64,000 nucleotides of DNA from Nitrospirota bacterium (GTDB taxonomy: Bacteria > Nitrospirota > Thermodesulfovibrionia > Thermodesulfovibrionales > JdFR-88). This document shows positions 4,469 to 62,794 of this stretch, piece after piece. The stretch is taken from assembly GCA_014874185.1 (NCBI GenBank), contig JACWAF010000026.1:15256-79255 (forward strand), given 5' to 3'. Each line of letters starts with the position of its first letter. Within the stretch, counting starts at the first letter, position 1. Position numbers and translations under genes: made by a program. The notes under the pieces were generated by a model. That model was given only the letters and a program-made list of their open reading frames with translations. It searched no databases and had not been told where the DNA came from.

Positions 4469-4566
4469 AATTAATCCCCTGTAAGCAATGGATTTAAACC
4501 AACTTTTATTATCTGATATTTATACCTGAACCTTGCTATTTTGTATTTGCAAGTTTTTGTAATTAT

Positions 4567-5583: not shown

Positions 5584-5594
5584 TTTGAATACAA

Positions 5595-12598: not shown

Positions 12599-14146
12599 TC
12601 AGGAGATTACCGAGGAGTCCCTCTTCAGCTCGTCCAGGTTTATCCCGTACTTCTTTATCCTGTAGGCAAGCATGCGGGGGGTGATGCCCAGGGTTGCCGC
12701 GGCGCGGTGCTGAACCATGTTGTTCTCCTTGAGGGCCTTTATGATCCTTATCCGCTCAAGGTTCTCCACTTCGAGGCTTAGCGAGGAGTCATCAATGGGC
12801 GCCGTGTAAGCCGTTTGTGCACGCGAGAGGAAATTGTAAGGGAGGTCTTCCTTGTCCAGGAGGTCCTTTTCGGTCATTATCACGAGCCGTTCCACCGTGT
12901 TTGCAAGCTCCCTCACGTTGCCCGGCCAGGAATAGCTTATGAATTCCTGCATGGCCTCCGGCGTGAAATTCACCTGTTTGCTGTAAGCCTTGTTGAACTT
13001 GTTCACATAAAAATTGAGCAGGAGCGGGATGTCCTTCTTTCTGTCCCTCAATGCGGGCAGCACAATGGAGACCACGTTCAGACGCCAGTAGAGGTCGTTC
13101 CTGAAAGCCCCCCTCGCAACCTCTTCCTGTATCTTCCTGTTTGTGGCCGCGATTATGCGCACGTCGGACTTGATGGACTTTGAGGAGCCCACGCGCTCAA
13201 AGGTCTTGCCCTCCAGCACCCGCAATAACTTGGCCTGAAGGGCCAGGGGAAGCTCGCCTATCTCGTCCAGGAATATCGTGCCCCCGTCTGCCAGCTCGAA
13301 CCGCCCGATGCGGCGCTCCGTGGCCCCGGTGAAGGCACCCCTTTCGGAGCCGAACAGCTCGACTTCAAGCAGGTTCTCCGGCAGGGCCGCGCAGTTTATG
13401 GCGATATAGGGCCCCTTCGCCCTGGGGCTCTGGTAATGGATGGTCTTCGCTATAAGCTCCTTGCCGGTGCCGGATTCCCCCAGAAGCAGCACGGTCGTGT
13501 CCGTGCCTGCCACCTTCATCACGAACTTCAGGACGCTCTGGAACCTCTCGGACTCGCCTATCACGTTGGGGAGGCTGTAGTGCTGCTGAAGCTGGCGCTC
13601 GAGGCTCTGCCTCTGCTCCTCGGACTTGCGGTAATTCTCCCAGAGCTTCACGAACTGGGCTATCAGGGATGAGACTATCTGCAGCACCCGCAAGTCATCA
13701 TCAACGCCCCCCGCCTGGGCGGAGTAGATGCGGTCGGCGGTTATAACCCCCAGGATCTCATCTTTCAGCTCTATGGGGACGCAGAGGAAGGAGATGCCGT
13801 TTTTGTCCGGGCGGGAGCCGGTCTTGTTCAGGAACATCGGCTCCTCACCTATGTTGGGGATGAACATGGGCTGGCCGTTCCCGATAACTCGCCCCACTAT
13901 GCCCTCGCCGATCCTGTACTTGCCCCTTTTTATCTCTTCCCTGGTAAGGCCGTGGGCGGCCACAATCCGCAGCTCGCGCGAGACCGGGTCCAGCAGAAAG
14001 ACGCACCCCCGTTGCATCTCCAGGAGCCTGCTCAGGGCCTGCATCGCCGCCGTAAGGTTCTCCTCCAGGTCAAAAGAGGCGGTGAGCACCCGGCTTACTT
14101 CAAGGATTGCGGAGAGTTCGCGGTTTTTTCTCTCAAGGGATTCCAT
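12599..14146 (-). CDS. sigma-54-dependent transcriptional activator with N-terminal GAF domain (FhlA/HyfR/NifA-like architecture)
   Basis: The N-terminal ~170 aa are GAF-like. The AAA+ core has 'GESGTGKE' and '[13 protein letters not shown]' (GAFTGA loop). The C-terminal Fis-type HTH is '[21 protein letters not shown]'. Confidence 0.9.
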
Positions 14147-14719: not shown

Positions 14720-14815
14720 TGCCCGTGCGATTATCATAAACGCGTCAAAACGACATATCATCGCGCTTAAAAGGCGGGGGGACATGCCATTTTGGCGCAA
14801 TTCTTTTCAGGAGGA

Positions 14816-16177
14816 ATGCCTTTGACCGCGGAACTGAACACGCTGATCGTTGCTGGCGGGGAATGGAAGAGGGAGTGGGAGAGGATCAGGCTGTACCTGA
14901 AGAGGAAGGGCATCAGGGTCTATTCCGTCCCCGGCCCGAAAGAGGCCCAGCGCCTCCTCAGGACCGAGCACATGAACATAGTGCTTTCGGAGTTCGACCT
15001 TAACGGGCAGGGCAGTCTCGCCTTCCTCCGGAGGCTGAAGGCCGTAAACCCCCAGGTGGAAGTGATATTCCTTTCGGGCAAGGTGCCCCTGTCGAAGGCC
15101 ATAGAGGCGATGAAGACCGGCGCGTACGACTTCTACGAATTCCCGGTGAACCCCAGGTTCCTGCTTGCGGTCATGGAGAAGGCCATTGAAAAGCAGGCCC
15201 TTTTCGTCGAGAAGGTGGAGCTTGAGCGCAAGGTGAAGGAGAGGTTCAATTTCGGCAAGATCATAGGCCGCAGCAAGGCCATGCAGCACGTTATAGAGAT
15301 AGTGGGCTCCGTGGCCCCCAAGAACGTCAACATCCTCCTCTCAGGCGAGACCGGCACGGGCAAGGAGATGATCGCAAACGCCATACACTATAACAGCGCC
15401 CGCGCATCGAGGCCGTTCGTAAAGGTGAACTGCGCGGCCTTCAACGAGGGGGTGCTGGAAAGCGAGCTCTTCGGGCATGAAAAAGGCGCCTTCACCGGCG
15501 CGATCTCGAAGAGGGTGGGCAGGTTCGAGCTTTCAAACGGGGGGACCATCTTCCTTGACGAGATAGGCGACGTCTCGCCGGGGACCCAGGTGAAGCTCCT
15601 GCGCGTCCTGCAGGAGAAGGAGTTCGAGCGCGTGGGCGGCAACGAGACCATAAAGGTGGACGTCCGGGTGATAGCGGCCACCAACCACGACCTCAAAAAG
15701 CTGATAGACCAGGGCAGGTTCCGCGACGACCTCTACTACAGGCTGAACGTTGTGCGCATAGAGCTGCCGCCGCTTCGCGAGCGCAGGGAGGACATCCCGC
15801 TCCTGGTCAGCTCCTTCATCAACAAGCTTAACGAGGAGAAGGCCTACGGCATAAAGGGCATCACCAAGGAGGCCATGCAGGTGCTCTTCTCCTACAGGTG
15901 GCCCGGGAACGTCCGCGAGCTTGAAAACGCCCTTGAGAGCGCGATGGCCCTTGCGGAAGCCGGCATGATTGAGGCAAAATACCTGCCGTCTTTTCTCCTC
16001 ATGCCGCAAACACAGGATGGTGAGCGCCTGAGCATACCGCGGGGCCTCACCCTCTATGAGATGGAAAAGGAGATCATCCGCCAGGCCCTGGAGAGGACCG
16101 GCGGCAATAAATCGCAGGCATCAAAATTGCTAGGTATCGGATTGCGCACATTGCAGAGAAAGGTAAAAGAACTTTAG
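14816..16177 (+). CDS. sigma-54-dependent NtrC-family activator with degenerate (non-phosphorylatable) receiver domain
   Basis: It has a receiver-like N-terminus and an AAA+ core with 'GETGTGKE' and 'ELFGHEKGAFTGA'. The HTH is 'QASKLLGIGLRTLQRKVKEL'. I prefer the ATG at 14816, which has an AGGAGG SD, to the TTG at 14792. Confidence 0.9.
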   Translation: MPLTAELNTLIVAGGEWKREWERIRLYLKRKGIRVYSVPGPKEAQRLLRTEHMNIVLSEFDLNGQGSLAFLRRLKAVNPQVEVIFLSGKVPLSKAIEAMKTGAYDFYEFPVNPRFLLAVMEKAIEKQALFVEKVELERKVKERFNFGKIIGRSKAMQHVIEIVGSVAPKNVNILLSGETGTGKEMIANAIHYNSARASRPFVKVNCAAFNEGVLESELFGHEKGAFTGAISKRVGRFELSNGGTIFLDEIGDVSPGTQVKLLRVLQEKEFERVGGNETIKVDVRVIAATNHDLKKLIDQGRFRDDLYYRLNVVRIELPPLRERREDIPLLVSSFINKLNEEKAYGIKGITKEAMQVLFSYRWPGNVRELENALESAMALAEAGMIEAKYLPSFLLMPQTQDGERLSIPRGLTLYEMEKEIIRQALERTGGNKSQASKLLGIGLRTLQRKVKEL

Positions 16178-16198: not shown

Positions 16199-18190
16199 TT
16201 GGAATTTCCTTTTTATACGGCGGCCATTTGCGCCTTCGGGGCGGGGATAACAGGTTTCCCGTTCGCCCCTAAAAAGTTATCGGGATATCTGTACTTCGTT
16301 TATGCCCTGGGCTCGGCCCTATTCGGGGCGGCGGCCCTCCAGACGGTATACTCCGGTGTGCAGACCTCGTTGAGTTTTTCCCTGAGCGGGGTGCTTGACA
16401 TCGCGTTCAGGACCGGCGGGCTTTCGGCCTTTTTCGCCCTGGTGCTCTCCATCCTTGGGTTCGCGGTCTCGGTATATTCGGCCGGGTACATGCGGCATGA
16501 GGACAACGCCTCGTTCCAGGGGGTCTTTTACGGGCTCTTCCTGATGTCAATCTACGCGGTATTCTATGCGGGAAACATGCCCGCCTTCCTTGTCTCGTGG
16601 GAGACCATGTCCCTGGTCTCCTATTTCCTCGTGGTAAGCGATTCCCGAAACGATGATTCCCGAAAGGCGGGCCTTACATACGCCACAATGACGCACATAG
16701 GCACGGCATTCATCATTGCGGCCTTCATGATCGCCTATGCCGGTACGGGGACAATGGACTTTGAAAAGCTCAGGGTCCTCATCTCCACAAAACCCGTATC
16801 GCTCCGCTGGGCCATCTTCGTTCCGGCGCTGACAGGCTTCGGGATAAAGGCGGGCATAGTGCCCCTGCACATATGGCTTCCGAAGGCGCACCCGGCCGCG
16901 CCTTCCAATGTCTCGGCCCTCATGTCCGGAGTGATGATCAAGACGGGCATCTACGGCATAGTCCTGTTTTCAATTTACATACTGGGCGGGGCGGTCGCCT
17001 CCTGGGGGGTGGTCCTCCTGGTGCTCGGGGCCGTCTCCTCCGTATTGGGGGTGCTCTATGCCCTTATGGAACACGATATGAAAAGGCTCCTCGCCTACCA
17101 CAGTGTGGAGAACATAGGGATAATACTTCTGGGAGTGGGCGCGTCGATAATCTTTCAGTCTTACGGGCTCTTCACGCTTGCCGGACTGGCCCTTGCCGCG
17201 GCGCTTTACCACACGTTGAACCACGCCGTCTTCAAGGGGCTCCTGTTCATGGGGGCGGGTTCGGTCCTGCACGGCACACATACGAAGAACATAGAGGAGA
17301 TGGGCGGGCTTTTGAAGAGGATGCCCTGGACGGGCCTTTTCTTCCTGGTGGGTTCCATATCGATATGCGCGCTTCCACCCACGAACGGCTTCGTCAGCGA
17401 ATGGCTTACCTATCAGTCATTGGTGCTTGGGAGCACGGCGCCCGCCGTATACGCCAAGGTTTTGATGCTCCTGGCCGGGACGGCGCTGGCCCTCACCGGG
17501 GCGCTCGCCGCCGACTGCTTCATAAAGGCATTCGGGATATCGTTTCTGGGAATGCCAAGGAGCGCCGAGGCGTCAGGCGCCAAAGAGTCATCCCGAAGCA
17601 TGCTGGCCGGGATGGCCGTGCTTGCGGCGTGCTGCCTTGCGCTTGGAATATTTCCAAATTTTGTCCTTGCCACAATGGGCAGGCTCGAAGTGGGCAGCCT
17701 TCCCTACGCCAGGGCCGCCCTGTCCGGAAACTGGATGCTCTCCGTCCAGAACGGCTTTTCAACCCTCTCTCCAATAGGGATACTGGCCATAATGCTGTCC
17801 GGGCTCCTGGCCCTGCTTGTCTTCATAAAGGGGCTTGGCAGGAGGGAGGTCTCCTATGGGGACTCCTGGGACTGCGGCATCAGAAGGCTCACGCCGCGGA
17901 TGCAATACACCGCCACGGCTTTTACAAAACCTCTCAGGCAGATATTCAAGAGGATATACCTGCCTACAAAAGAGGTAAAGATAATCTACAGGCTGCGGCC
18001 CTTCTTCGCGGAAAACATCACTTATAATTCGGGGATAACGCCCTTTTTCGAGAAATACGGATACGGCCCCGCGGTCTCCACGGTGCACAAGGCCGCACTC
18101 AGGATCAGAAAGCTCCAGTCCGGCAGCCTTCATCTGTACCTGGGCTATATACTGCTAACCCTCCTGGTCCTTCTTTTTGCGTGGGGGTAG
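16199..18190 (+). CDS. HyfB/HycC-like antiporter-type membrane subunit (NuoL/Mrp family)
   Basis: A 663-aa polytopic protein with 'WLPKAHPAAPSNVSALMSGVMIKTGIYG', the hallmark of NuoL/M/N-type proton-pumping subunits. Its length matches HyfB. Confidence 0.8.
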   Translation: MEFPFYTAAICAFGAGITGFPFAPKKLSGYLYFVYALGSALFGAAALQTVYSGVQTSLSFSLSGVLDIAFRTGGLSAFFALVLSILGFAVSVYSAGYMRHEDNASFQGVFYGLFLMSIYAVFYAGNMPAFLVSWETMSLVSYFLVVSDSRNDDSRKAGLTYATMTHIGTAFIIAAFMIAYAGTGTMDFEKLRVLISTKPVSLRWAIFVPALTGFGIKAGIVPLHIWLPKAHPAAPSNVSALMSGVMIKTGIYGIVLFSIYILGGAVASWGVVLLVLGAVSSVLGVLYALMEHDMKRLLAYHSVENIGIILLGVGASIIFQSYGLFTLAGLALAAALYHTLNHAVFKGLLFMGAGSVLHGTHTKNIEEMGGLLKRMPWTGLFFLVGSISICALPPTNGFVSEWLTYQSLVLGSTAPAVYAKVLMLLAGTALALTGALAADCFIKAFGISFLGMPRSAEASGAKESSRSMLAGMAVLAACCLALGIFPNFVLATMGRLEVGSLPYARAALSGNWMLSVQNGFSTLSPIGILAIMLSGLLALLVFIKGLGRREVSYGDSWDCGIRRLTPRMQYTATAFTKPLRQIFKRIYLPTKEVKIIYRLRPFFAENITYNSGITPFFEKYGYGPAVSTVHKAALRIRKLQSGSLHLYLGYILLTLLVLLFAWG

Positions 18191-19109
18191 GGTGGAGAGC
18201 CTGCAATTTCTGCTGATAATCTTCTTCTCCCCGCTCCTGCAGGGCTTCATCAAGAAAATAAAAGCCCTTTCGCAGGGGAGGGTGGGGCCTGGCATCCTTC
18301 AGCCCTACTACGACCTGATAAGGCTGTTCAAAAAAGACATGGTCATCTCGGAGACGGCCTCGTGGATATTCCATGCCGCGCCTTTCGTGACCTTCGTCTC
18401 CGTGCTTGCCGCATCCGTCATAACACCCGTTTTCAGCCTGCAGGGGGGCATCTTCAAGGCGGGGGACATAATCGCCATAATCTACACGCTGGCCCTAGGC
18501 CGTTTCTTCATGGCCCTGGCCGGGCTGGACGCGGGCACCGGGTTTGGGGGCGAGGGGTCCAGCCGCGAGGCCACCCTGGCCATCATAGTGGAGCCCGTGC
18601 TCATAATGGCCATATTCACCGCGGCCATAGCCGGGGGCTCCACAAGCCTCTCCATACTGAGCCGCTCGGCCAACATCTTCCGCTCCCCGGCCCACGTGCT
18701 GGCCTTCGCCGCTTTCTACGTGGCCCTGATAGCGGAGACCGGCAGGGTCCCGGTGGACAACCCAGACACCCACCTCGAATTAACCATGATCCACGAGGGG
18801 ATGGTCCTTGAATACTCGGGGCCGTACCTGGCCCTGATGGAATGGGCGCATTTCATGAAGCAGATGCTCCTGTTCACGATAGCCCTGGATCTCTTCTTCC
18901 CGTTCGGGATGCAGGGCGGCAGCACCGCCCTGGGGCTTGCCCCCGCTCCGGGGATTTACCTGATAAAGGTTTTCATAATGGGCGTGGCGGTCGCTTTAAC
19001 TGAAAGCACGCGGGCCAAGATGAGGTTCTTCCAGCTGCCGTCGCTTCTTGGGGGGGCCTTCGTGCTGGCCCTGCTGTCCGTGATAACCCTGATAATGCTG
19101 GGCGGATAG
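18177..19109 (+). CDS. HycD/HyfC-like membrane subunit (NuoH family)
   Basis: 'PLLQGFIKKIKALSQGRVGPGILQPYYDLIRLFKKD' matches the NuoH/HycD N-terminal signature. An alternative GTG start is at 18192. Confidence 0.8.
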   Translation: MRGGRVESLQFLLIIFFSPLLQGFIKKIKALSQGRVGPGILQPYYDLIRLFKKDMVISETASWIFHAAPFVTFVSVLAASVITPVFSLQGGIFKAGDIIAIIYTLALGRFFMALAGLDAGTGFGGEGSSREATLAIIVEPVLIMAIFTAAIAGGSTSLSILSRSANIFRSPAHVLAFAAFYVALIAETGRVPVDNPDTHLELTMIHEGMVLEYSGPYLALMEWAHFMKQMLLFTIALDLFFPFGMQGGSTALGLAPAPGIYLIKVFIMGVAVALTESTRAKMRFFQLPSLLGGAFVLALLSVITLIMLGG

Positions 19110-19113
19110 GAAC

Positions 19114-19776
19114 ATGGCAAGAAACTGGCTTCAGGCCTATTCAGTGCTGGACTTCATAGCTGTAGGGATGCTCCTGTCCGTTATAGCCGTAAGCTCGCAG
19201 AAGAGGCTGGAGTCCTGTGTGAGGACGTATGTGCTCAATTCCTGGCTGCTGGCGGCATTTGTAACCGTGAGCGCCTTCTACATGGGGATGCCGCACCTTT
19301 ACATCGCGGCGGCCCTCACGGTGCTCTCCAAGTGCTTCCTGATACCGTACTTCCTCAGGAAGGTGCTCCGGCAGCTGAGGGTGACGCATGACGTGGAGCC
19401 ATATATAAGCGCGCCGCTTTCGCTCCTGGCCGCCTTCGCCCTTGTAGTTGTGGTGTTTTCGTTTGTCTCGCAGGGCGTCTTCGTGACCGGCGTGACCAGG
19501 AACGCGCTGAAGATAGCCATATCGATAATCCTCATCAGCCTCTTCGTCATGATGACCAGGAAGAAGGCGATAACCCAGGTGATAGGGCTTCTAATAATGG
19601 AAAACGGGCTTTTCCTGGCCGGGTTTTCACTCACCTACGGGATGCCGATCATAGCGGAGCTGGGCGTGGTCTTCGACATGCTGATGGGCGTGATAATACT
19701 GGGCCTTTTTTTAACACAAATAAAAAAGGCATTCGTGAGCGTGGACCTGGACAAGCTCACCACATTGAAGGGATAG
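19114..19776 (+). CDS. HyfE-like small membrane subunit (NuoK-related)
   Basis: 220 aa with about 7 TM segments. Its size and position between the HyfC-like and HyfF-like genes match the E. coli hyf operon. Confidence 0.6.
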   Translation: MARNWLQAYSVLDFIAVGMLLSVIAVSSQKRLESCVRTYVLNSWLLAAFVTVSAFYMGMPHLYIAAALTVLSKCFLIPYFLRKVLRQLRVTHDVEPYISAPLSLLAAFALVVVVFSFVSQGVFVTGVTRNALKIAISIILISLFVMMTRKKAITQVIGLLIMENGLFLAGFSLTYGMPIIAELGVVFDMLMGVIILGLFLTQIKKAFVSVDLDKLTTLKG

Positions 19777-21225
19777 ATGCTATACGGGGTACTGATACCG
19801 CTTGCGGCCGCTCTCATCCTGATGGCCTCGAAGAGGCTGAAGCCGGCCGAATACATTACCGTGCTTGCCGCCGGGGCAGGGGCCCTCTGGGCGGGCACGA
19901 TTGCCTTCTACGCGCTTTACGGATATGTATTCGACGGGCTTGGCGGCCTCTTCAGGGCCGACGCGCTCTCGGCCTATATCCTCCTTATCATTGCCGGTCT
20001 GTCATTCGCAACGGCGGTCTATTCGGTTGGCTACATGAGGGGGGAACTCTCCAGGCTTGCCATAACTGAGAAGGCTCTCAAATTCTATTACGTGCTCTTC
20101 AACCTGTTCGTCTTTACCATGATGCTCATCCCCATTTCGAACAACCTGGCCTTTTTGTGGATAGCCATTGAGGCCACCACGCTTGTGAGCGCCCTGCTGG
20201 TGGGCATCTATAAAAGGCAGAACTCGATAGAGGCGGCCTGGAAGTACATCATCCTCTGCACGGTGGGCATCACGTTTGCCCTCCTGGGCACGTTCGTCAT
20301 CTACTACGCCTCCGCCGAGGCCGGCACGGGCACCCTGGACTGGACGGAGCTTAGCCGGATGGCCCACGGCCTGAACCCGGCCACTGTGAGGCTGGCCTTC
20401 ATACTGATAATAGTGGGGTACGGCACAAAGGCCGGGCTGGCCCCGGTACACAACTGGCTCCCGGACGCCCACAGCGAGGCCCCCACGCCGGTGAGCGCGC
20501 TCCTTTCGGGCATCCTCCTGAACTGCGCCTTCTACGGCGTGATGAGGTTCGCGGCCATCGCGGACAAGTCCTGCGGGCACGCCTTCGTGCAGGAGATAAT
20601 GGTATTCTTCGGGCTGGCTTCGATAATCATCCCCGCCATATTCATCCTTATTCAGTCCAATGCCAAGAGGCTCCTCGCTTACAGCAGCATAGAGCACATG
20701 GGGATAATCGCCCTGGCCTTCGGCATAGGCGGGGTCTGGGGCATCTACGCCGCCCTCCTGCACATCCTGAACCACGCCCTCGGGAAGCCCCTCATGTTCT
20801 TCGTCATGGGCAGGGTGCACTCGCAATATCATTCCGTTGAGATGGGCGAGGTGAGAGGCGTGCTCGGGGTGAACCCCCTGATTGCGGTGATCGGCTTTGC
20901 CGGGGCGATGTGCCTTGCCGGGATGCCGCCATTCAATATATTCCTCAGCGAATTTTTAATGATTAAGACCCTTGCCGCGGGCAGCTACTGGGGCATTATG
21001 GCCACGTTCCTCGCGGCAAGCGGGTTTGTGTTTTACGGGTTTTTAAAGGGTTTTGGCGGGATGTTCCTTGGCAAGCCCTCGCTGGAGCACGGAGAGCCGG
21101 TTTCCTTCAGGGCCTCAGATACGGTGCTGGTAGTGATGGGGATGGGCATCCTGCTCCTGGGGCTTTCCATCCCGGGGCCGCTGAATAAACTGATCAACCT
21201 CTCCATAGGGGCGCTCGGGGTCTAG
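19777..21225 (+). CDS. HyfF-like antiporter-type membrane subunit (NuoM/N family)
   Basis: Contains 'GTKAGLAPVHNWLPDAHSEAPTPVSALLSGILLNCAFYG', the NuoM/N signature. Confidence 0.8.
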   Translation: MLYGVLIPLAAALILMASKRLKPAEYITVLAAGAGALWAGTIAFYALYGYVFDGLGGLFRADALSAYILLIIAGLSFATAVYSVGYMRGELSRLAITEKALKFYYVLFNLFVFTMMLIPISNNLAFLWIAIEATTLVSALLVGIYKRQNSIEAAWKYIILCTVGITFALLGTFVIYYASAEAGTGTLDWTELSRMAHGLNPATVRLAFILIIVGYGTKAGLAPVHNWLPDAHSEAPTPVSALLSGILLNCAFYGVMRFAAIADKSCGHAFVQEIMVFFGLASIIIPAIFILIQSNAKRLLAYSSIEHMGIIALAFGIGGVWGIYAALLHILNHALGKPLMFFVMGRVHSQYHSVEMGEVRGVLGVNPLIAVIGFAGAMCLAGMPPFNIFLSEFLMIKTLAAGSYWGIMATFLAASGFVFYGFLKGFGGMFLGKPSLEHGEPVSFRASDTVLVVMGMGILLLGLSIPGPLNKLINLSIGALGV

Positions 21226-21226
21226 C

Positions 21227-22756
21227 ATGAATCCGGCAAACGAGATACACAAGAAACTGACCGAGGGGGAATTCCGCGAAGAGGCGGCAATGCTATTTGA
21301 TAATGGCAACCCGCTCATGCTCATGTTCTGCGTGGACGAGCGGGAGATTGGCGGAGGGTTCACCGTCTATGCCGTCTTCTCTTTGAAGGGAGAAGACCTG
21401 TTCATGGTCCTGAGCTTCCCCGTAACCGAAAAATCCGGGCGGTTTGCGTATAAGAGCATCACCCCCCTGGTGCCCGCCGCCCACTGGTACGAGCGTGAGA
21501 TAAGGGACATGTTCGGGATAGAGCCGCTGGGGCACCCAGACCCCAGGCCGCTGGTCCTTCACGGCATGTATCCGGACAACCTCCATCCCTTGAGAAGGGA
21601 CGTGACCGTGGAACAGATAAGAAGCCGCATTGACCTCGAAAGAGAGGACAATTACAATTTCGTGAAGGTAGAGGGCGAGGGGGTCTGCGAGATACCGGTG
21701 GGCCCCGTGCACGCGGGCATCATAGAGCCCGGCCATTTCCGTTTCAGCGCCGTGGGCGAAAGCATTTACTTCCTGGACCCAAGGCTGTTCTATACCCATA
21801 AAGGGGTGGAAAAACACTTCGAGCGGATTGGCTTCGAGCGGGGCGCAGCGCTTGCCGAAAGGGTGTCCGGCTGTTCCTCCTTCGCGCACTCCACGGCATA
21901 TTGCCTCGCGGTGGAAAGGATGGCCGGAGTGGAAATACCCGAAAAGGCCAAAGCCATCCGGACGCTCCTTCTGGAACTGGAGCGGATTTACAACCATATC
22001 GGCGACATAGGCAATATGTGCGCCGGGACGGGCTTCGCCGTTGGCTACCAGAGCGGCGCGCTGATAAAAGAGAAGCTCATGAGGCTGAACGCAAGCCTGA
22101 CCGGAAGCAGATATCTGAGGGGGGTGAATGCTCTTGGGGGCGTCAGCAGGGACGTGCTTGAGAAAGCGGACGAGATACTCTTCACCCTGGACGAGGTCAC
22201 TACGGAGTACAAGGATTTCATGGAGCTTCTGACCGGTTCGGTCTCCCATATGGAAAGACTGGACGGGGCGGGCGTGCTCTCGATGGACATAGCGCGCAAG
22301 CTTGGCGCCACGGGCATAGCCGCCCGCGGTTCGGGCATAAACCAGGACATGCGCACCGTGCACAAACACCTGATGTATGATTCAGTTGTGTTCGAGGCCC
22401 ATTCACGGGGGAAAGGCGACGTGCTGGCGCGGATGATGGTGAGGGCGGACGAGGCCGAATGCTCGTTCTCGATAATAGAGTCCATCCTCAAAGAGCCCTA
22501 TCCCGGCCCCCTCGCAGCCGGTATAAAAGGATTCCCGGCGCTCTCCTCCGCATTGGGCTATGTGGAGGGGCCCAGGGGGTCTGTCTTCTACTTTGTGAAG
22601 ACGAACGACAAGGGGGAACCGCTGAGGGTCAAGGTGCGTTCGGCATCGTTTTGCAACTGGCCTTTGATGCCCTTTGCGGTGAGGGGAAACATCATTCCGG
22701 ACTTCCCGCTTGTCAACAAGAGTTTTAATCTTTCATATTCCGGCTCGGACATGTAA
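21227..22756 (+). CDS. HycE/HyfG-like fused NuoC-NuoD-type subunit lacking all four [NiFe]-ligand cysteines
   Basis: Contains 'GPVHAGIIEPGHFRF' and 'RLFYTHKGVEK', typical of group-4 large subunits. The ligand motifs read RVSGCSSFAH (instead of RxCGxCxxxH), and the C-terminus reads NLSYSGSDM* (instead of DPCxxCxxR). Confidence 0.8.
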   Translation: MNPANEIHKKLTEGEFREEAAMLFDNGNPLMLMFCVDEREIGGGFTVYAVFSLKGEDLFMVLSFPVTEKSGRFAYKSITPLVPAAHWYEREIRDMFGIEPLGHPDPRPLVLHGMYPDNLHPLRRDVTVEQIRSRIDLEREDNYNFVKVEGEGVCEIPVGPVHAGIIEPGHFRFSAVGESIYFLDPRLFYTHKGVEKHFERIGFERGAALAERVSGCSSFAHSTAYCLAVERMAGVEIPEKAKAIRTLLLELERIYNHIGDIGNMCAGTGFAVGYQSGALIKEKLMRLNASLTGSRYLRGVNALGGVSRDVLEKADEILFTLDEVTTEYKDFMELLTGSVSHMERLDGAGVLSMDIARKLGATGIAARGSGINQDMRTVHKHLMYDSVVFEAHSRGKGDVLARMMVRADEAECSFSIIESILKEPYPGPLAAGIKGFPALSSALGYVEGPRGSVFYFVKTNDKGEPLRVKVRSASFCNWPLMPFAVRGNIIPDFPLVNKSFNLSYSGSDM

Positions 22757-22766
22757 ATTATTATTT

Positions 22767-23288
22767 ATGTTCACGCGAATTTTTAATAATATTATAGGGA
22801 AGAAAAAGGCCCTCCGGGCCGGTGAGCTTAAGCTTACAAGGTCGGACTTGGAGTTTGCCGAAGGGATGAGGAGGAAGATGCACAGCGTGTTTGGCCGCTC
22901 GGCAAGGATAAGGCAGGTGGACGCCGGCTCTTGCAATGCCTGCGAATGGGAGTGCACCGCCATGGGGAACCCCGTGTACGATTCGCAGAGGTTCGGGGTG
23001 GATTTCGTGGCCTCCCCCAGGCACGCCGACATCATCCTCGTTACGGGGCCGGTCTCGCTGGGTATGGTACTGGCCCTCAAAAAGACATATCTCGCCACAC
23101 CGGGGCCGAAGCTGGTCATCGCCTGCGGCGACTGCTCGAAAGACGGCGGCATTTACCGGGGCAGTTACGCGGTCACGGACGGGGCCGCGGAGATAGTGCC
23201 GGTGGACAGCTACATCCCGGGGTGTCCGCCCACGCCGCGCGACATACTCGCGGGAATAAGCAGGACCATTGACGCATTCATCAAATAA
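22767..23288 (+). CDS. HycG/HyfI-like small subunit (NuoB family), [4Fe-4S] cysteines retained
   Basis: Contains 'GSCNACEWE', 'SPRHADIILVTG', 'IACGDC' and 'YIPGCPPTP'. I prefer the ATG at 22767, just after the upstream stop, to 22710. Confidence 0.85.
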   Translation: MFTRIFNNIIGKKKALRAGELKLTRSDLEFAEGMRRKMHSVFGRSARIRQVDAGSCNACEWECTAMGNPVYDSQRFGVDFVASPRHADIILVTGPVSLGMVLALKKTYLATPGPKLVIACGDCSKDGGIYRGSYAVTDGAAEIVPVDSYIPGCPPTPRDILAGISRTIDAFIK

Positions 23289-23301: not shown

Positions 23302-24669
23302 ATGTCAGAGGCCGCTAGAGAGTACGAAGAACCTCCGAGCCAACAGATTCAAGTCCTGCCGCGCGAGGACGCGCACGGGGGAGACGACCTCTTCCGCAAG
23401 GTGGATCTCGCGCGGAAATTCTGGCCAGAGGCAACCCAGTCCGAATGGAACGACCCCCGATGGCAGATGGCAAACAGGCTCCGCACACTGGAACCGCTCT
23501 CCACTCTACTGGACCTGAAGCCCTATCAGAAACCGCGCTACAAAAGACTTATAGACGCGTTCCACTACTCGATCACCCCCTATTATCTCTCTCTGGCCAA
23601 CTGGTCTGACCCGGAAGACCCCATCAGAAAGCAGTGCGTCCCGGACCTCCGGGAGCTGGAATTCCAAATGGTGGGCGACAACGACCCGCTGGAAGAGGAA
23701 GATGACATGCAGGTGCAGGGGCTTGTGCACCGCTACCCGGACCGGGTGCTGGTAATAGCCACCAACGCCTGCAGCATGTATTGCAGGCATTGCACCAGGA
23801 AAAGGATCTGGCACGAGGGCGAGTCCTCAAGAAGTAAAAAAGATTTCCAGGCGATGCTCCATTATATCCGGGTCACTCCGGAGGTGCGAGAGGTGATCGT
23901 CTCCGGCGGAGACCCTCTTACAATGAACATGGAGCTTCTGGACTGGCTCCTTGGCGAACTCCGCAGGATATCCCATGTTGAGGTGCTCCGGATAGGCACG
24001 AGGCTTCCGGTGGTGCTCCCCATGGGCGTAACGGACGATATGGTGAAAATGCTCAGGGGCCACCGCCCGCTCTGGCTGAACACCCAGTTCAATCACCCGG
24101 CCGAGATAACCCCCGAGTCGCGGGAGGCCTGCGACCGCATACTCTCGGCGGGGATTCCGGTCAGCAACCAGTCGGTGCTCCTCCGCGGCATAAACGACTC
24201 ACCCGAAATAATGAAAGATCTCTGCCACGGGCTTCAGAGGATCATGGTTCGGCCCTATTACCTTTTCCAGTGCGACCCGGTGCGCGGAGTGGAGCATTTC
24301 CGCACCAGCATCTGGAAGGGGATAGAGATAATAGAGATGATGCGCGGCTACACGGGCGGGCTTACAATCCCCAATTTCGTGGTGGACGCGCCCGGCGGAG
24401 GCGGGAAGATACCGCTCCAGCCGTTCTATCTGCTCTCGGTCACCGACAAGGAGATTCTCCTCAGGAATTACGAGGGGATGATAATAAAGTACTACAACCC
24501 GGATGAGACCCATATGGAACGGGGCAGGAAATCGAACGGCGCCGGCAGGGACGGCGGCACGGCCCAGCTCCTGAAAGGCCAGGGGAAGGCCCTTGTGCCG
24601 GAAGAGACCCAGCGCTACAAGAGGAGAAAGCAGAAGGACCTGCTATTCAAGCTGGGCGATATGAAATGA
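23302..24669 (+). CDS. KamA-family radical-SAM amino acid 2,3-aminomutase (lysine 2,3-aminomutase-like; substrate not determinable by eye)
   Basis: Contains 'NACSMYCRHCTRKR' (CxxxCxxC), 'VIVSGGDPL' and 'RPYYLFQCDPVRGVEHF'. The SD AAGGAGG lies 7 nt upstream of the ATG at 23302. Confidence 0.85.
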   Translation: MSEAAREYEEPPSQQIQVLPREDAHGGDDLFRKVDLARKFWPEATQSEWNDPRWQMANRLRTLEPLSTLLDLKPYQKPRYKRLIDAFHYSITPYYLSLANWSDPEDPIRKQCVPDLRELEFQMVGDNDPLEEEDDMQVQGLVHRYPDRVLVIATNACSMYCRHCTRKRIWHEGESSRSKKDFQAMLHYIRVTPEVREVIVSGGDPLTMNMELLDWLLGELRRISHVEVLRIGTRLPVVLPMGVTDDMVKMLRGHRPLWLNTQFNHPAEITPESREACDRILSAGIPVSNQSVLLRGINDSPEIMKDLCHGLQRIMVRPYYLFQCDPVRGVEHFRTSIWKGIEIIEMMRGYTGGLTIPNFVVDAPGGGGKIPLQPFYLLSVTDKEILLRNYEGMIIKYYNPDETHMERGRKSNGAGRDGGTAQLLKGQGKALVPEETQRYKRRKQKDLLFKLGDMK

Positions 24670-25733
24670 AGATCGCCCTCACTTACGACCTCCGGCGCGA
24701 GTACATGGAGATGGGCTACTCCGAGGAGGAGACCGCCGAGTTCGACAGCGAAGAGACCGTCGAGCATCTTAAGGCCGCTGTGCGCGAACTGGGGCACGAG
24801 GCCGTCCCGGCAGGCAATATCTACGAGCTTACCCGCCGTCTTGCCGGCGGAGAGACCTGGGACCTGGTCTTCAATATCTGCGAGGGGCTCCGGGGCAGGA
24901 ACCGCGAGTCCCAGGCGCCCGCCCTCCTTGAGGCCTATAATATCCCTTACACGTTCAGCGACCCCCTCACGCTTTCTTTATGCCTGGACAAGGCCATGGC
25001 GAAGCGGGTGGTGCGGGACTCCGGCGTGCCCACACCGGATTTCTTCGTCATAAATTCTGTCCCGGAGATAGATAAATCAGAACTCCCAAAAGGGATGAAA
25101 TTCCCGCTTTTCGTAAAGCCCGTCTCCGAGGGGACGGGGAAGGGCGTTACCCCGGCCTCGATAGTGAACGACCCGAAAGAGCTTAAGAACCAGGCAAGGA
25201 GGCTGCTCTTGAAATATTCGCAGCCCGTCCTGGTGGAGGGCTATCTTCCGGGAGATGAGTTCACGGTGGGGATACTTGGCACCGGACCCGAGGCCCGTGT
25301 GATAGGCGCGTTGGAGGTGAAACTCCTCAAGAGCGCCGAGCCCCTGGTCTACTCCTACATGAACAAGGAACTCTGCGAAGAGCGCGTGGAGTACACGCTT
25401 GTAAAAAGTAAAAAGCTCCTCAGGGAGGCCTCGGACGTGGCCCTTCGCGCATACCAAGCCCTCCAGTGCAGGGACGCGGGCAGGGCGGACCTGAAGGCCG
25501 GCCCGGACGGAAGGCTTCAATTCATTGAGATGAACCCGCTTGCGGGGCTTCATCCCACGCACTCCGACCTGCCGGTCCTATGCTCCAGGGCCGGGATGAG
25601 CTACAGGGAGCTTGTCTCTTCCATAATAGAATCCGCATCCAAAAGAAAGGCCTCTTCAAACAGCAGGACAGCCTGCAATACAGACCAGTCCTTATTCCGG
25701 AGGCCGCCCCCGGGCAGGCCAGCCGGCCTTTGA
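24666..25733 (+). CDS. ATP-grasp ligase, D-alanine--D-alanine ligase-like family
   Basis: Ddl-like layout: 'DKAMAKRVVRDSGVPTPDF', 'FPLFVKPVSEGTGKGV', 'YLPGDEFTVGILG', 'LQFIEMNPLAGL'. Its ATGA start overlaps the kamA-like stop. Confidence 0.75.
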   Translation: MKIALTYDLRREYMEMGYSEEETAEFDSEETVEHLKAAVRELGHEAVPAGNIYELTRRLAGGETWDLVFNICEGLRGRNRESQAPALLEAYNIPYTFSDPLTLSLCLDKAMAKRVVRDSGVPTPDFFVINSVPEIDKSELPKGMKFPLFVKPVSEGTGKGVTPASIVNDPKELKNQARRLLLKYSQPVLVEGYLPGDEFTVGILGTGPEARVIGALEVKLLKSAEPLVYSYMNKELCEERVEYTLVKSKKLLREASDVALRAYQALQCRDAGRADLKAGPDGRLQFIEMNPLAGLHPTHSDLPVLCSRAGMSYRELVSSIIESASKRKASSNSRTACNTDQSLFRRPPPGRPAGL

Positions 25734-26707
25734 TGAAAATAGCCGTTGTATATAACGAGCCCGATAAGGGGAGTCTCGACTCGATGGATATCCTGGACGA
25801 GCTGTCTACCGTAACCGGCGGATTGGACGGGCTCGGGCTGGATTACGAGGTCTTCCCCGTTGCCGCGGTCCCCGGCTTCTGCGCGGGGCTCCTCTCAGGT
25901 CTGGAAAAATTCTCTCCGGGGCTTGTCTTCAACCTGGTTGAGGGGGTGGGCGGGAATTACAGGCTTCACCCCGCGATGGCCGCCCTGTTCGAGATGGCGG
26001 GCTACCCGCACACCGGTTCCCCTTATGACGTGCTCCTTGCCACCACGGACAAAACGATGGCCAAGGGGATCATGAAGGCGCACGGCATAAAAACCCCTGA
26101 CTGGGAAATCTATAAAGGCGGCCCTTTCAGGCCACAGGTAAATACGCCCTGCATCGTGAAGCCCTCGTTCGAGGACGCCTCGGTGGGGATAGACGACAGC
26201 AGTCTGATAATCGATGCCGATGATCTGCTGGAAAAGGCCGGGAGCATCTACCGGAAATTTCACAGGCGGCCGGTGCTGATAGAGAGCTTCATCCCCGGCA
26301 GAGAGTTCAATGTCTCTCTCCTCGAAAAGCCGGACGGGGTGGAGGTCTTCCCCCTGGCCGAGATATTATTCACCAACTGGCCCGACAAAAAGCCAAAAAT
26401 AGTGAACTACAACGCCAAATGGGTGGAGGACTCTTTTGAATATCAGAACACACCCAGGACATTCGCGCCCGCTCCGGCCCCCTTTGGAGAGATAAGGGAA
26501 ACGGCGCTCAGGTGCTGGGACATATTTAACCTGCGGGGGTATGCGCGGGTGGACATGAGACTTGACGCGGAGGGCACCCCCTACGTTATCGAGGTAAACG
26601 CGAACCCCTGCATAGCGCCGTGGTCGGGCTATCTGGCCGCGGCCAAAGAGGCCGGCTGCGGGCCCCGGGATGTGATGAAGCGTATAATAGAGAGCGCCCT
26701 CTTATGA
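25733..26707 (+). CDS. second ATP-grasp ligase, D-alanine--D-alanine ligase-like family
   Basis: Contains 'DKTMAKGIMKAHGIKTPDW', 'PCIVKPSFEDASVGI', 'FIPGREFNVSLL' and 'PYVIEVNANPCI'. Its start overlaps the upstream stop (TGATG at 25731-25735). Confidence 0.75.
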   Translation: MKIAVVYNEPDKGSLDSMDILDELSTVTGGLDGLGLDYEVFPVAAVPGFCAGLLSGLEKFSPGLVFNLVEGVGGNYRLHPAMAALFEMAGYPHTGSPYDVLLATTDKTMAKGIMKAHGIKTPDWEIYKGGPFRPQVNTPCIVKPSFEDASVGIDDSSLIIDADDLLEKAGSIYRKFHRRPVLIESFIPGREFNVSLLEKPDGVEVFPLAEILFTNWPDKKPKIVNYNAKWVEDSFEYQNTPRTFAPAPAPFGEIRETALRCWDIFNLRGYARVDMRLDAEGTPYVIEVNANPCIAPWSGYLAAAKEAGCGPRDVMKRIIESALL

Positions 26708-27261
26708 GGATATCGGGCATCCGGAAGAAAATGGAGGCGTTGAAAGGCGTGCGCCTGCGCGATAACGTCAGGGTTGAAGACAAAAGGGCCGTGGCGGATA
26801 TCCTCTCGGCATCCGGGCTCTTCTATCCATATGAAATCGATGTGGCGATTGAATTGCTGGACGACTTTCTTGATAAAGGCAGGCAAAGCGAGTACCGGTT
26901 CCTCTTCGCGGATATCGGGGGCGGGGCGGCAGGGTACGCGTGCTTCGGGCCAATCTCGATGTCTCCGGGCAGGTTCGATCTTTACTGGATAGCCGTAGAC
27001 AAGAAGCATCAGAGGAAAGGGATCGGGGGGCTGCTCCTCTCCGGGGCTGAAAAGAAAATGGCGGCAGAGGGGGCCGGATACATCTATGTAGAGACCTCTT
27101 CAAGAGAGGTTTACCTGCCCACCCGGCGCTTCTATGAAAAGCACGGGTATCGTCAGGTCGCCTGCGTGCCGGAGTACTTTGGCGACGGCGACCACAAGAT
27201 CATCTACATGAACTCCATTAAAAAGTCTCTTGACACCTTTTTGGGAAGTTATAAAATTTAA
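26704..27261 (+). CDS. GNAT-family N-acetyltransferase
   Basis: 'LYWIAVDKKHQRKGIGGLLLSGAEK' is the acetyl-CoA binding Q/RxxGxG/A motif. Its ATGA start overlaps the upstream stop. Confidence 0.8.
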   Translation: MRISGIRKKMEALKGVRLRDNVRVEDKRAVADILSASGLFYPYEIDVAIELLDDFLDKGRQSEYRFLFADIGGGAAGYACFGPISMSPGRFDLYWIAVDKKHQRKGIGGLLLSGAEKKMAAEGAGYIYVETSSREVYLPTRRFYEKHGYRQVACVPEYFGDGDHKIIYMNSIKKSLDTFLGSYKI

Positions 27262-27263
27262 CT

Positions 27264-27836
27264 ATGAAAAAGATACTGCTTCTTCTCATGGCTCTGGCGC
27301 TTTTGGCATCCTGCGCTCCGGTCCTGAACAAGGGGCTTATGAGAGAAGGGACCAGGAACCCTTCCTTCCAGAGCCTGCTCGATAACCCCGGCATGTACAA
27401 GGGGAAACTCTTTATCATGGGCGGCATTATAGCAAGCACCAAAATAACGCCTGAGGGCTCGCTCATCGAGGCCCTCTATGTGCCGGTGGACAGTTCCGGA
27501 GAGCTGAAGGACAAATACGGCGAGCAGGGCAGGTTCCTGGCGCTCCTCCCGAAGGACAAGGGCATGCTGGATCCGATGATTTACAAGAAGAACCGCGCGA
27601 TAACCCTTGCGGGCACTTACATGGGCACCCGGACAACCAAAATAGACACCACCGACGTCGCCCTTCCCTTCTTCAATATAGTGCAGATATATCTCTGGAG
27701 GGAAGAGGCCTACTATGCGTATCCCTATTCCTATTATCCGTATTATGGCTATCCCTACTATCCGTACTACTATAACTATCCCTTCTGGTGGGAAAGGCCC
27801 TATAACAGGTTCTACGGGCCTCCGTACTGGTATTAG
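27264..27836 (+). CDS. Slp-family outer-membrane lipoprotein with Tyr/Pro-rich C-terminal tail
   Basis: It has a signal peptide with lipobox LLASC. 'KLFIMGGIIASTKITPEGSLIEALYVPVDSSGEL...GRFLALL...DPMIYKKNRAITLAG' fits the Slp family. The tail reads 'YYAYPYSYYPYYGYPYYPYYYNYPFWWERPYNRFYGPPYWY'. Confidence 0.7.
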   Translation: MKKILLLLMALALLASCAPVLNKGLMREGTRNPSFQSLLDNPGMYKGKLFIMGGIIASTKITPEGSLIEALYVPVDSSGELKDKYGEQGRFLALLPKDKGMLDPMIYKKNRAITLAGTYMGTRTTKIDTTDVALPFFNIVQIYLWREEAYYAYPYSYYPYYGYPYYPYYYNYPFWWERPYNRFYGPPYWY

Positions 27837-62311: not shown

Positions 62312-62509
62312 TCGGAATTTCCTTTCAGGACAGCAATTCTTTATTATAAGCCCCCAGGGCGGGATTGGTAAATAATGGAGGGGAGCTTCTCCGCCGGCTG
62401 TAACAGCAAAATGATAATGTCCGGGGGAAAGGCACCCTTGACCGAAAAGCTCAGGCCTGCAAGCCCTTCGCTTTCGCCATGGGGAGGTCCAGACCAGCCA
62501 TCGCTTCAC

Positions 62510-62538
62510 TTGCAAATTTCATGAAAAGGGTATATATT
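62510..62538 (+). promoter_or_regulatory. sigma-70-type promoter for vapBC (TTGCAA-17 nt-TATATT)
   Basis: The hexamers have canonical spacing and lie 26 nt upstream of the vapB ATG. Confidence 0.4.
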
Positions 62539-62563
62539 TTTAGTATATATGTTGGAGGTTGGT

Positions 62564-62791: not shown

Positions 62792-62794
62792 TCC

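Follow-up and report, generated by a model that had tools for sequence, protein, structure and literature searches.

Can a gene cluster arranged like that of hydrogenase-4 still encode a hydrogenase when its large subunit lacks the Ni-Fe ligands, and what might such a complex do instead? We addressed this question for positions 16199-23288 of a 64-kb stretch of Nitrospirota DNA, referred to here as the window, where ORF (open reading frame) calls give six intact and tightly packed genes on the plus strand. The locus is almost certainly ehrABCDLS, encoding an Ehr (energy-converting or Ech-hydrogenase-related) complex of a Nitrospirota-type bacterium, and not a hydrogenase. A first-pass annotation, made from the sequence of the window, had already placed it in the Ehr class and outside the [NiFe] hydrogenases; the ligand loss relative to HycE and the literature on the same kind of complex bear this out. 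The locus is a further member of a known, widespread family, placed in evolution between the membrane hydrogenases and complex I, and no new kind of system.

The Former Ni-Fe Site of EhrL

We compared EhrL to proteins of known structure. Its best sequence match in the PDB is E. coli HycE (7z0s_E, E = 2.3e-89 in phmmer), and the alignment is ungapped at both metal-binding motifs. In the N-terminal motif (L1), RVCGICGFAH of HycE corresponds to RVSGCSSFAH in EhrL. In the C-terminal motif (L2), DPCYSCTD corresponds to NLSYSGSD, which is followed by a methionine and the stop codon. The alignment of both motifs thus places S214, S217, S503, and G506 at the four ligand positions, and all four [NiFe] cysteines are gone, as the first-pass annotation had claimed. 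It had also described a C terminus without a maturation-protease tail; indeed, only one residue and the stop codon follow NLSYSGSD, and the EhrL end coincides with that of mature HycE.

The motif registration on which these statements depend was confirmed against the solved HycE sequence. An AlphaFold2 model of the EhrL monomer (pTM 0.79) likewise has HycE 7z0s_E as its best structural match (TM-score 0.84/0.80). The sole cysteine of L1, C216, occupies the position of an isoleucine in HycE and is not conserved, relatives having mostly Thr or Val here. No CxxC ligand segment is encoded in the other reading frames around either motif, which excludes a frameshift. Neither of the two ways in which the earlier registration might have been wrong, cysteines at the ligand positions or a hidden frameshift with a DPCxxC segment, was thus found. 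Group 4 [NiFe] hydrogenases carry four cysteines in the motifs RxCGxCxxxH and [DE][PL]CxxCxx[HR]. EhrL has none of these and agrees with the definition of Ehr, a large subunit without NiFe-binding cysteines. As EhrL is devoid of Ni-Fe ligands, H2 evolution or oxidation at a NiFe site is not possible.

One feature of the former active site is retained. The stretch EIPVGPVHAGIIEPGHFRFS (EhrL residues 155-174), which we have taken as the beta1-beta2 loop, includes a glutamate, E167, that aligns with E21 of MbhL, the key proton-reduction residue of MBH (PMC7684303). Glutamate is found at this position in 87 of 89 other Ehr sequences and in 28 of 29 Cys-bearing relatives. H38 and Y87 of Nqo4 (2fug_4), the quinone ligands of complex I, align with I166 and G215 of EhrL.

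Conservation and Place in the Family

We asked whether the altered site is a conserved state. We searched 5.8 billion proteins for homologues and obtained at least 120 EhrL clusters with 59-73% identity. Those with a named source among the matches listed come from metagenome-assembled genomes (MAGs) of Nitrospirota, Thermodesulfovibrionales, or Nitrospiraceae, with one labelled Actinomycetota. The L1 region reads ER[VI]SG[TVC]SSF[SA]H in all 120 listed clusters, and all 120 end at the same position with NKSFNLSY[SA]G[CTS]D plus one residue ([MLAVI]); a Ni-Fe ligand cysteine is present in none of them. In a 39-sequence alignment the invariant blocks are residues 155-174, the substituted L1 region, and the C terminus, precisely the segments that surround the former active site. 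The near-invariance of these motifs and the integrity of all six ORFs show purifying selection on a non-hydrogenase state and not decay. The ligand loss is fixed and selected.

We next placed the window sequence among its more distant relatives. When 1.84 billion representatives were searched exhaustively with HMMER, 7707 EhrL matches were obtained, the top 150 of which were examined. Four cysteines (R[IV]CGxC ... ELCYxCxDR) and a tail-less C terminus are seen in about 29; most others are Cys-less, with the recurrent signature R[IV]SGD[STNE].. ... NLSY[SA]GND[LR]. In a 125-sequence neighbor-joining (NJ) tree the window clade is monophyletic in 100/100 bootstraps and lies within a radiation of Cys-less and Cys-bearing relatives. 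The nearest representative outside the clade, P0121, has four cysteines and is 51% identical. Support for the sister group is 18% for P0121 and 17% for P0141, values at which an independent ligand loss cannot be told from one shared with classical Ehr.

The window clade is intermediate in its motifs. It shares with Ehr the Ser/Ser/Ser/Gly at the ligand positions and Asn501, whereas position 216 holds a neutral residue (Thr, Val, or Cys) in place of the Asp found in 64 of 89 other Ehr sequences, and position 507 holds Cys, Thr, or Ser in place of a residue that is mostly Asn elsewhere. The signature R[IV]SGD...H with ...SY[SA]GND[LR] is thus absent: the window reads SGC, its clade SG[TV], and the C-terminal motif SG[CTS]D. 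This signature was derived here and is no published criterion, so that its absence marks a subtype and does not exclude the clade from Ehr.

The Cys-bearing relatives (P0121 and loci L021, L023, and L024) combine four Ni ligands with a fused HycF-HycG small subunit and may correspond to HydDB group 4f, going by the description in PMC10284858. They are the closest relatives outside the 50%-identity cluster of the clade (about 47-51%) and share its ABCDLS gene order and the tail-less end of the large subunit at the same position; unlike the clade, they retain R[IV]CGxC...ELCYxCxD and, on the small subunit, both CxxCxxCxxxC motifs in intact form.

Two minor observations concern the related loci. 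A second, divergent ehr cluster directly follows the first at L012:3080-3409, L015:7068-11636, and L017:4143-5498, about 35-49% identical to ehrA of the window; as far as gene order tells, some genomes are carriers of tandem Ehr complexes. Three loci that are not otherwise related share an ORF of about 134 aa (MSG..YP.ESY...GA.F.VYK..G.GFLE..Y...), homologous in all three and inserted between the large- and small-subunit genes (L017:2886-3299, L021:6557-6961, and L023:11573-11977); it resembles a small mobile or selfish gene more than a subunit.

The Fe-S Site of EhrS

With the Ni-Fe site gone, we analyzed the small subunit, EhrS, which aligns with HycG (7z0s_G, its best sequence match) and, ungapped, with MbhJ. 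The canonical ligands of the proximal cluster are C56, C59, C123, and C153. The first-pass annotation had counted four cluster cysteines in GSCNAC, IACGDC, and PGCPP. All four are indeed kept, with one correction: in IACGDC it is the second cysteine that serves as the canonical third ligand, as only C123 matches the ligand in HycG, MbhJ, and PSST. According to the HycG and MbhJ alignments, the first cysteine of this motif, C120, is additional, as is the last one of CNACEWEC, C63.

These two further cysteines mark the window clade. A separate protein search with EhrS, again counted over 120 listed clusters, shows that the motifs carrying them are invariant and that GCPP is missing from only one cluster (Table 1). 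C63 and C120 occur together in 17 of 17 clade sequences and in none of 36 sequences outside, where column 63 holds I, V, L, M, A, or F, and where three sequences have a cysteine at column 120 only. The presence of extra invariant cysteines beside the ligands argues for a functional and not a vestigial Fe-S site. The positions of these additional cysteines differ from those in O2-tolerant hydrogenases. The invariant six-Cys small subunit thus provides both a marker of the clade and a concrete target for mutagenesis and spectroscopy.

EhrS has also lost a domain. We compared 52 small subunits from related loci. Fused proteins of a HycF/NuoI-like and a NuoB domain are encoded by the Cys-bearing loci L021, L023, and L024 and by the Ehr loci L035, L038, L040, L043, L047, L059, L067, and L088; they measure 235-321 aa, begin with M-x3-KK-x3-TG-x-VT-x2-YP, and continue with two CxxCxxCxxxC motifs and the NuoB domain. 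L027 and L029 encode the two-cluster part as a protein of its own (112 aa), and L028, L036, L041, L048, L051, and L052 show ferredoxin motifs that have degenerated in part or completely. The window clade, together with many loci in which the small-subunit gene comes first, has small subunits of 173-186 aa with a remnant only. In the alignment, an insert of about 85 columns with the two CxxCxxCxxxC motifs is present in the fused relatives and absent from EhrS, which keeps only a short N-terminal remnant of the HycF/NuoI-type 2x[4Fe-4S] domain. A fusion of NuoI and NuoB in Ehr was noted earlier in the supplement to PMC6349859, citing Marreiros 2013. That many Ni-less Ehr complexes have an intact 2x[4Fe-4S] domain indicates that selection continued to maintain electron delivery to the proximal cluster once the Ni site had disappeared.

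Locus Organization and Membrane Subunits

The six genes and the features discussed in this work are collected in Table 1. Profile scans with Pfam and NCBIfam covered about 54 of the 67 candidate ORFs of at least 70 aa in the window, the rest being mostly shorter than 145 aa. The profile matches and coordinates confirm the hyf-like order of six genes proposed earlier, with junctions of -14, +4, 0, +1, and +10 nt, within the range of -14 to +10 nt given before. The last of these takes ATG 22767 as the EhrS start; this ORF is open from 22710, and ATG 22767 is its likely start, in agreement with the N termini of homologues. ehrA starts with TTG preceded by GGGGAGG, an arrangement that is found again in relatives, and scores 662 bits against NF005086 (hydrogenase-4 subunit B), just below the cutoff of 667. 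The profile matched by ehrC describes a hydrogenase-4 membrane subunit, and the ehrC homologue of locus L002 gives a weak match to PF00420 (NuoK). EhrL carries Complex1_30kDa and Complex1_49kDa, that is, the NuoC-NuoD fusion also seen in HycE and HyfG, and EhrS matches the Oxidored_q6/NuoB family. These six genes are found together in over 40 related loci.

The scanned ORFs of the window include no HycF/NuoI-type subunit, formate dehydrogenase, hyp gene, or second hydrogenase, and the first three of these absences had been claimed at the outset. The scans found no maturation protease gene either.

Table 1. Positions of the ehr genes, their motifs, and the adjacent genes in the 64-kb window
Feature	Position	Strand	Remarks
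Former L1 Ni-binding motif, RVSGCSSFAH	21860-21889	+	S214, S217 at Cys positions
Former L2 motif, NLSYSGSDM + stop	22727-22756	+	S503, G506 at Cys positions; no protease tail
EIPVGPVHAGIIEPGHFRFS, EhrL residues 155-174, includes E167	21689-21748	+	invariant in 39-sequence alignment
CNACEWEC, canonical C56 and C59, clade-specific C63	22932-22955	+	GSCNACEWEC in 120/120 listed clusters
CGDC, clade-specific C120, canonical C123	23124-23135	+	ACG[DE]C in 120/120 listed clusters
PGCPP, fourth canonical ligand C153	23217-23231	+	GCPP in 119/120 listed clusters
ehrA, HyfB/NuoL-like antiporter-type subunit with C-terminal extension	16199-18190	+	663 aa; NF005086; PF00361
ehrB, NuoH/HycD/HyfC-like membrane anchor	18177-19109	+	310 aa; PF00146, 2.7e-44
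ehrC, HyfE-like small membrane subunit	19114-19776	+	220 aa; NF008556, 4.6e-26
ehrD, HyfF/NuoM/N-like antiporter-type subunit	19777-21225	+	482 aa; NF005044, 8e-130; PF00361
ehrL, NuoC-NuoD-fused large subunit without Ni-Fe ligands	21227-22756	+	509 aa; PF00329 and PF00346
ehrS, NuoB/HycG-like small subunit	22767-23288	+	173 aa; PF01058
Divergent GAF-sigma-54 activator, NifA-like architecture	12599-14146	-	PF01590, PF00158, PF02954
Sigma-54-dependent activator, atypical receiver	14792-16177	+	PF00072, PF00158, PF02954; ends 21 nt before ehrA
kamA, KamA-family radical-SAM protein, lysine 2,3-aminomutase	23302-24669	+	13 nt after ehrS
ATP-grasp 1, Ddl-like ligase	24666-25733	+	
ATP-grasp 2, Ddl-like ligase	25733-26707	+	
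GNAT acetyltransferase	26704-27261	+	
Slp lipoprotein	27264-27836	+	

The membrane subunits keep their coupling elements and antiporter-type motifs across 41-64 homologues. EhrA (41 family members) conserves E135 (W-E135), K216 (GIKAG..PLHIWLPKAH), K247 (MIKTG), HAVFKGLLF, and E401 (GFVSE401W), as well as a WDCG motif in its C-terminal extension. EhrB (52 homologues) conserves GGEGSSRE and PVDNPDTHLELTMIHEG..LEYSG. In EhrD, alignment with MbsH and MbhH identifies E132 (AIEAT), K217 (GTKAG), and E391 (FLSE391F). We take these residues as counterparts of the charged residues in the ion-translocating subunits of MBH, MBS, and complex I and of two of their three coupling loops; this mapping of EhrA, EhrB, and EhrD to the function of the known complexes would hold to the extent that aligned residues keep their roles.

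Comparison with Known Systems

The name Ehr for this type of complex goes back to Coppi 2005 and Marreiros 2013 (cited in PMC3569383, PMC6349859, and PMC12342949), and reviews from 2023-2025 still term its function unknown. Our literature search found no functional or structural study of any Ehr complex. About half of the Nitrospirales genomes encode Ehr (PMC12342949), and further reports concern Nitrospira, Desulfotomaculum, Margulisbacteria, and ammonia-oxidising archaea; for Margulisbacteria a link to formate dehydrogenase was proposed from genomic grounds only. In Geobacter sulfurreducens all Ehr subunits were detected as protein, responded to the electron donor, and were more abundant with formate (PMC7894505). 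Compared by description, its EhrA-D, L, and S (GSU0739-45) form the same subunit set as the window locus. Other Ehr complexes often have the NuoI-NuoB fusion, whereas the window clade has six invariant cysteines and no NuoI-like domain; in their large subunits Asp (SGD, 64/89) and mostly Asn (SGND) take the places held in the window clade by Thr, Val, or Cys in the first motif and by Cys, Thr, or Ser in the second.

Among characterized complexes, E. coli formate hydrogenlyase and hydrogenase-4 (group 4a, 7z0s) provide the best sequence and fold match of EhrL and the best sequence match of EhrS, and they share with the window complex the NuoC-NuoD fusion and the hyf-like gene order. The window complex differs in having no Ni ligands, cleavable C-terminal tail, HycF/HyfH, or HycB/HyfA and no formate dehydrogenase or hyp genes nearby.

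MBS (Mbx) of Pyrococcus furiosus (6u8y) is likewise derived from a hydrogenase, has abandoned H2 chemistry, and has no quinone-binding His/Tyr. Its proximal [4Fe-4S] cluster is the catalytic site, without NiFe (PMC7684303). MbsL keeps two of the four cysteines and has no equivalent of MbhL E21; MbsJ has a shortened loop and a three-Cys cluster, and the complex keeps MbsN with two clusters and a full Mrp module (PMC7684303). The window differs in having the glutamate, a CxxC loop, and extra cysteines and in having no MbsN equivalent and no Mrp small subunits. The locus is thus no MBS/Mbx: its loop has the length and spacing of hydrogenases, and no residual ligand cysteine is left in EhrL.

Complex I (NDH-1) resembles the window complex in its homologous subunits, the lack of Ni ligands, and the N2-type cluster position on the NuoB homologue. 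It has, however, a tandem CC on NuoB and the Nqo4 residues H38 and Y87, where the window has CxxC, as in hydrogenases, and Ile and Gly. No homologues of NuoA, NuoI, NuoJ, or NuoEFG were found among the scanned ORFs of the window. Finally, the locus does not encode an Mrp antiporter, as only MrpA/D-like subunits (PF00361) are present, together with NuoB-, NuoC-, NuoD-, and NuoH-like subunits in place of MrpB-G.

Proposed Mechanism and Alternative Explanations

We tentatively read the complex as a stripped-down coupling machine of the MBH, MBS, or complex I type. Its sole redox center would be the Fe-S site that EhrS provides where it meets EhrL and EhrB, with the six invariant cysteines around it. 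As the two-cluster domain has been deleted, electrons would have to reach this site straight from a soluble low-potential carrier (e.g. ferredoxin) or a docking partner protein. They would be accepted by a small molecule in the cavity once occupied by NiFe, where the proton-delivery glutamate (E167) is kept and both the Ni ligands and the quinone-binding His/Tyr of complex I are gone. Turnover or a redox change at the EhrS site would then lead to ion translocation by the antiporter-like EhrA and EhrD, along a coupling route formed by the beta1-beta2 loop of EhrL, the GGEGSSRE segment of EhrB, which is taken as the transmembrane helix 5-6 loop, and the C-terminal segment of EhrA. Expression is probably conditional, under the adjacent sigma-54 activators, and in the window sublineage it may be co-ordinated with the beta-lysine-forming gene set. 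By analogy, catalysis at the proximal cluster of MBS without NiFe (PMC7684303) is a precedent that supports a redox function.

How firmly can this be held? The proposal that the locus encodes an ion-translocating redox module and not a hydrogenase had been made before. Its negative part stands because of the ligand loss, and its redox part is still conditional. The favored reading as a whole, Ehr identity together with stripped-down redox-coupled ion translocation of the MBH/MBS/complex I type, we regard as tentative and as falling a little short of being probable, and the redox coupling of the complex itself we consider plausible and, to the same degree, doubtful. Any electron flow, as well as the nature of the donor, the acceptor, and the transported ion, is what we infer from the comparisons above.

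Several findings weigh against the redox-coupled reading. The EhrL model has pLDDT values below 50 at residues 144-191 and 473-509, the active-site segments, so that it is silent on the contents of the pocket and on the distance of C63 and C120 to the cluster. The ligands of the quinone head group, H38 and Y87 of Nqo4, have no equivalents in EhrL. One antiporter-type subunit is atypical, with EhrD N246 (SGILLNCAFYG) found where MbhH and MbsH have a conserved lysine; the equivalent position in EhrA keeps it (SGVMIKTGIYG). With the HycF-like domain deleted from EhrS and no HycF/HyfH/MbhN-type gene among the scanned ORFs of the window, the complex has no electron input module of the 2x[4Fe-4S] type. 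In six loci (L054, L060, L062, L065, L069, and L074) three of the four proximal-cluster cysteines are lost, while the gene set and the EhrL motifs are kept. Here, GS[STD]NAC, GDD, and PG[DN]PP, with S, T, or D, D, and D or N in the ligand positions, replace the usual motifs (e.g. L060:4235-4759), and these complexes would be without canonical Fe-S ligands. The function shared by the family may thus need no electron transfer, and together with the deleted input domain this makes electron transfer no safe assumption family-wide.

The search for a partner points in the same direction. It comprised an all-against-all BLAST of 450 neighboring ORFs and a Pfam scan of 150 immediate neighbors in about 60 loci. 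Among the 25 most frequent of 177 neighbor families there was no recurrent formate dehydrogenase, NuoEF, Hyp, or ferredoxin gene, and the scanned ORFs of the window contain no recurrent redox partner, although single loci may differ. The first-pass annotation had named no electron partner, and none is encoded nearby among the scanned ORFs of the window or recurs among these frequent neighbor families. The commonest neighbors are ArsR (6), histidine kinase (4), response regulator (3), Usp (3), NUDIX (3), and sigma-54 activator (2) proteins, a set that indicates conditional, stress-linked expression and not a fixed electron donor.

The six ligand-poor loci also make a redox-independent or redox-gated transporter a serious rival, which we judge possible though unlikely. 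The complex would be a secondary transporter, an Mrp-type cation/proton antiporter driven by an existing ion gradient, with EhrL and EhrS as a lid or gate and with an Fe-S site that is structural or acts as a redox or oxygen sensor switching transport. It would account for the graded loss of cofactors down to ligand-free small subunits with unchanged architecture and EhrL motifs, for the deletion of the input domain in the window EhrS, and for recurrent neighbors that are regulators and stress proteins with no recurrent redox partner among them. The intact antiporter-type motifs fit as well, as does a sublineage cluster that runs into kamA and GNAT, a set used elsewhere for the osmolyte N-epsilon-acetyl-beta-lysine. 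A structural cluster, however, would not need four canonical and two further cysteines that are invariant in the listed clade clusters, and the best-conserved part of EhrL is the former active-site region with its proton-donor glutamate. The scans of the window revealed no MrpB/C/E/F/G-type subunits, and the kamA link is limited to one sublineage.

The comparison of small subunits shows that cofactors are lost stepwise across the family: NiFe first, the two-cluster domain next, and the proximal cluster last. Such a graded loss in the Ehr family was not found described in the literature. It implies that a single shared redox function is not required of the family.

If the redox-coupled reading is kept, the extra cysteines may be more than neighbors of the cluster. 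C63 and C120 could form a redox pair beside the [4Fe-4S] cluster, or all six cysteines could hold a cluster with two redox transitions, so that a disulfide, polysulfide, or similar compound is reduced in an ion-pumping analogue of MBS with ferredoxin:thioredoxin reductase (FTR)- or Hdr-like chemistry. We consider such a cluster-plus-dithiol catalyst improbable. The two cysteines are invariant and strictly co-occur, four residues after and three before canonical ligands; the hosts are Nitrospirota, with many named matches from Thermodesulfovibrionales; and in MBS the proximal cluster itself is the catalyst, its two-Cys loop deciding function (PMC7684303). Neighboring cysteines, however, are irrelevant to MBS catalysis (PMC7684303), and no sulfur-metabolism genes are adjacent. 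The proximity of C63, C120, and the cluster has no structural support in a model with pLDDT below 50 at the EhrL pocket, and of the enzymes invoked for comparison (FTR, Hdr, and O2-tolerant hydrogenases with their six-Cys clusters) the last have their extra cysteines at other positions.

It is similarly a long shot that the window clade is a distinct Ehr subtype in which, with the gain of two invariant cysteines, the remaining Fe-S site (C-x2-C-x3-C ... C-x2-C ... C) has been turned into the active center, as a six-Cys cluster or as a cluster beside a redox-active dithiol. This claim would include a disulfide, polysulfide, or small acceptor and a stress operon with the beta-lysine pathway in the sublineage. 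If true, no smaller ion-translocating oxidoreductase would be known in the complex I superfamily, and shedding the two-cluster domain would let a soluble partner reach the EhrS site directly. Useful leads come from the six cysteines that mark the small subunit of this clade, from the deletion of its input domain, and from the step-by-step loss of cofactors in the family.

A genuine [NiFe] hydrogenase, disguised by a wrong registration, a hidden frameshift, or metal binding through other residues, is highly implausible despite the similarity to HycE (E = 2.3e-89; TM-score 0.84) and Cys-bearing relatives at about 50% identity (P0121, L021, and L023), given the ungapped motif alignment with S/S/S/G repeated in 120 independent listed clusters, the lack of an alternative frame with a ligand segment, and the absence of hyp and protease genes from the window scans. 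Just as far-fetched is a decaying remnant, an inactivated hydrogenase operon without current function: catalytic ligands and the Fe-S input domain are both gone, but none of the six ORFs is broken, their lengths are conserved and their junctions tight, the motifs are invariant over 120 listed clusters at about 60% identity in a clade that is monophyletic in 100/100 NJ bootstraps, and Ehr proteins are detected in G. sulfurreducens.

Neighboring Genes and Regulation

Two sigma-54-dependent activators precede ehrA (Table 1). The one next to it is conserved at the same position in L003-L006 and L009 with 75-77% identity. In its receiver the acidic pair reads GG (LIVAGGEW), and a Glu stands at the phospho-acceptor position (IVLSEFDL); L005, L006, and L009 have IVLSDFRL at the phospho-acceptor, and the DD pair is missing in relatives too. 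This suggests activity that may be independent of phosphorylation or constitutive. The divergent activator scores 512 bits against TIGR01817, under the cutoff of 528.85, and has a counterpart on the opposite strand in L003-L006 and L009.

We searched for a sigma-54 promoter of ehrA. The only plus-strand match near ehrA, at 16116-16131 with two mismatches, was rejected, as it lies within the HTH_8 coding sequence of the activator (A-S-K-L-L-G-I) and owes its conservation to this. Across the whole window, 17 sigma-54-type matches were found versus 25.9 expected by chance. The best site of the window, TGGCACGATTATTGTA, has one mismatch and is located at 14646-14631, 47 nt upstream of a 54-codon ORF on the minus strand (14583-14419). 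This ORF lies between the two activator genes and has a lipoprotein-like signal, MKYLIVSVALSAMLVLSIAAC, and a Pro/Thr/Ala-rich tail; small ORFs stand at the same place between the activators in L003-L009.

Downstream, genes run on from ehrS to slp (23302-27836) with gaps of at most 13 nt or small overlaps. KamA keeps the positions of Asp293 and Asp330 of Clostridium subterminale lysine 2,3-aminomutase (2a5h), which we take to bind the lysine epsilon-amino group and thus to indicate lysine specificity. The cassette of kamA, two ATP-grasp genes, and GNAT was not found described in the literature; its product could be a beta-lysine-derived solute or peptide. The ehr-kamA-ATP-grasp block is present in L003-L008, L011, and L094 wherever the locus extends so far, with the GNAT gene in all block-bearing loci apart from L001, a 5-kb copy of the window, and with Slp in L004, L007, and L094. 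In the Nitrospirota MAG loci L003-L009 and L011 the activators, ehr, kamA, the two ATP-grasp genes, and GNAT are arranged as in the window. L094 has the ehr-to-slp block without activators and instead msrA and msrB upstream. We considered the kamA linkage as a general functional clue and discarded it, as it is confined to one sublineage and missing from the clade loci L002, L010, L013-L015, L022, L092, and L093, where sensor kinases, response regulators, or unrelated genes lie beside ehr.

Two single loci encode Fe-S proteins as divergent neighbors: glutamate-synthase-like Fe-S flavoproteins (GXGXG, Fer4_20, Pyr_redox_2, Glu_synthase) beside ehrA at L092:1-3683 (minus strand), and a 251-aa Fer4_10/AF_0155 protein beside ehrS at L002:12072-12827 (minus strand). 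These single cases are possible lineage-specific partners.

Outside the locus, the G+C content falls to 0.37-0.39 at 2001-6000, which encodes glycosyltransferases (GT2, WbsX, GT9) and an FkbM-methyltransferase and adjoins a polysaccharide flippase, and to 0.43 at 62001-64000, compared with 0.53-0.60 elsewhere. The low-G+C region is probably a horizontally acquired surface-polysaccharide island.

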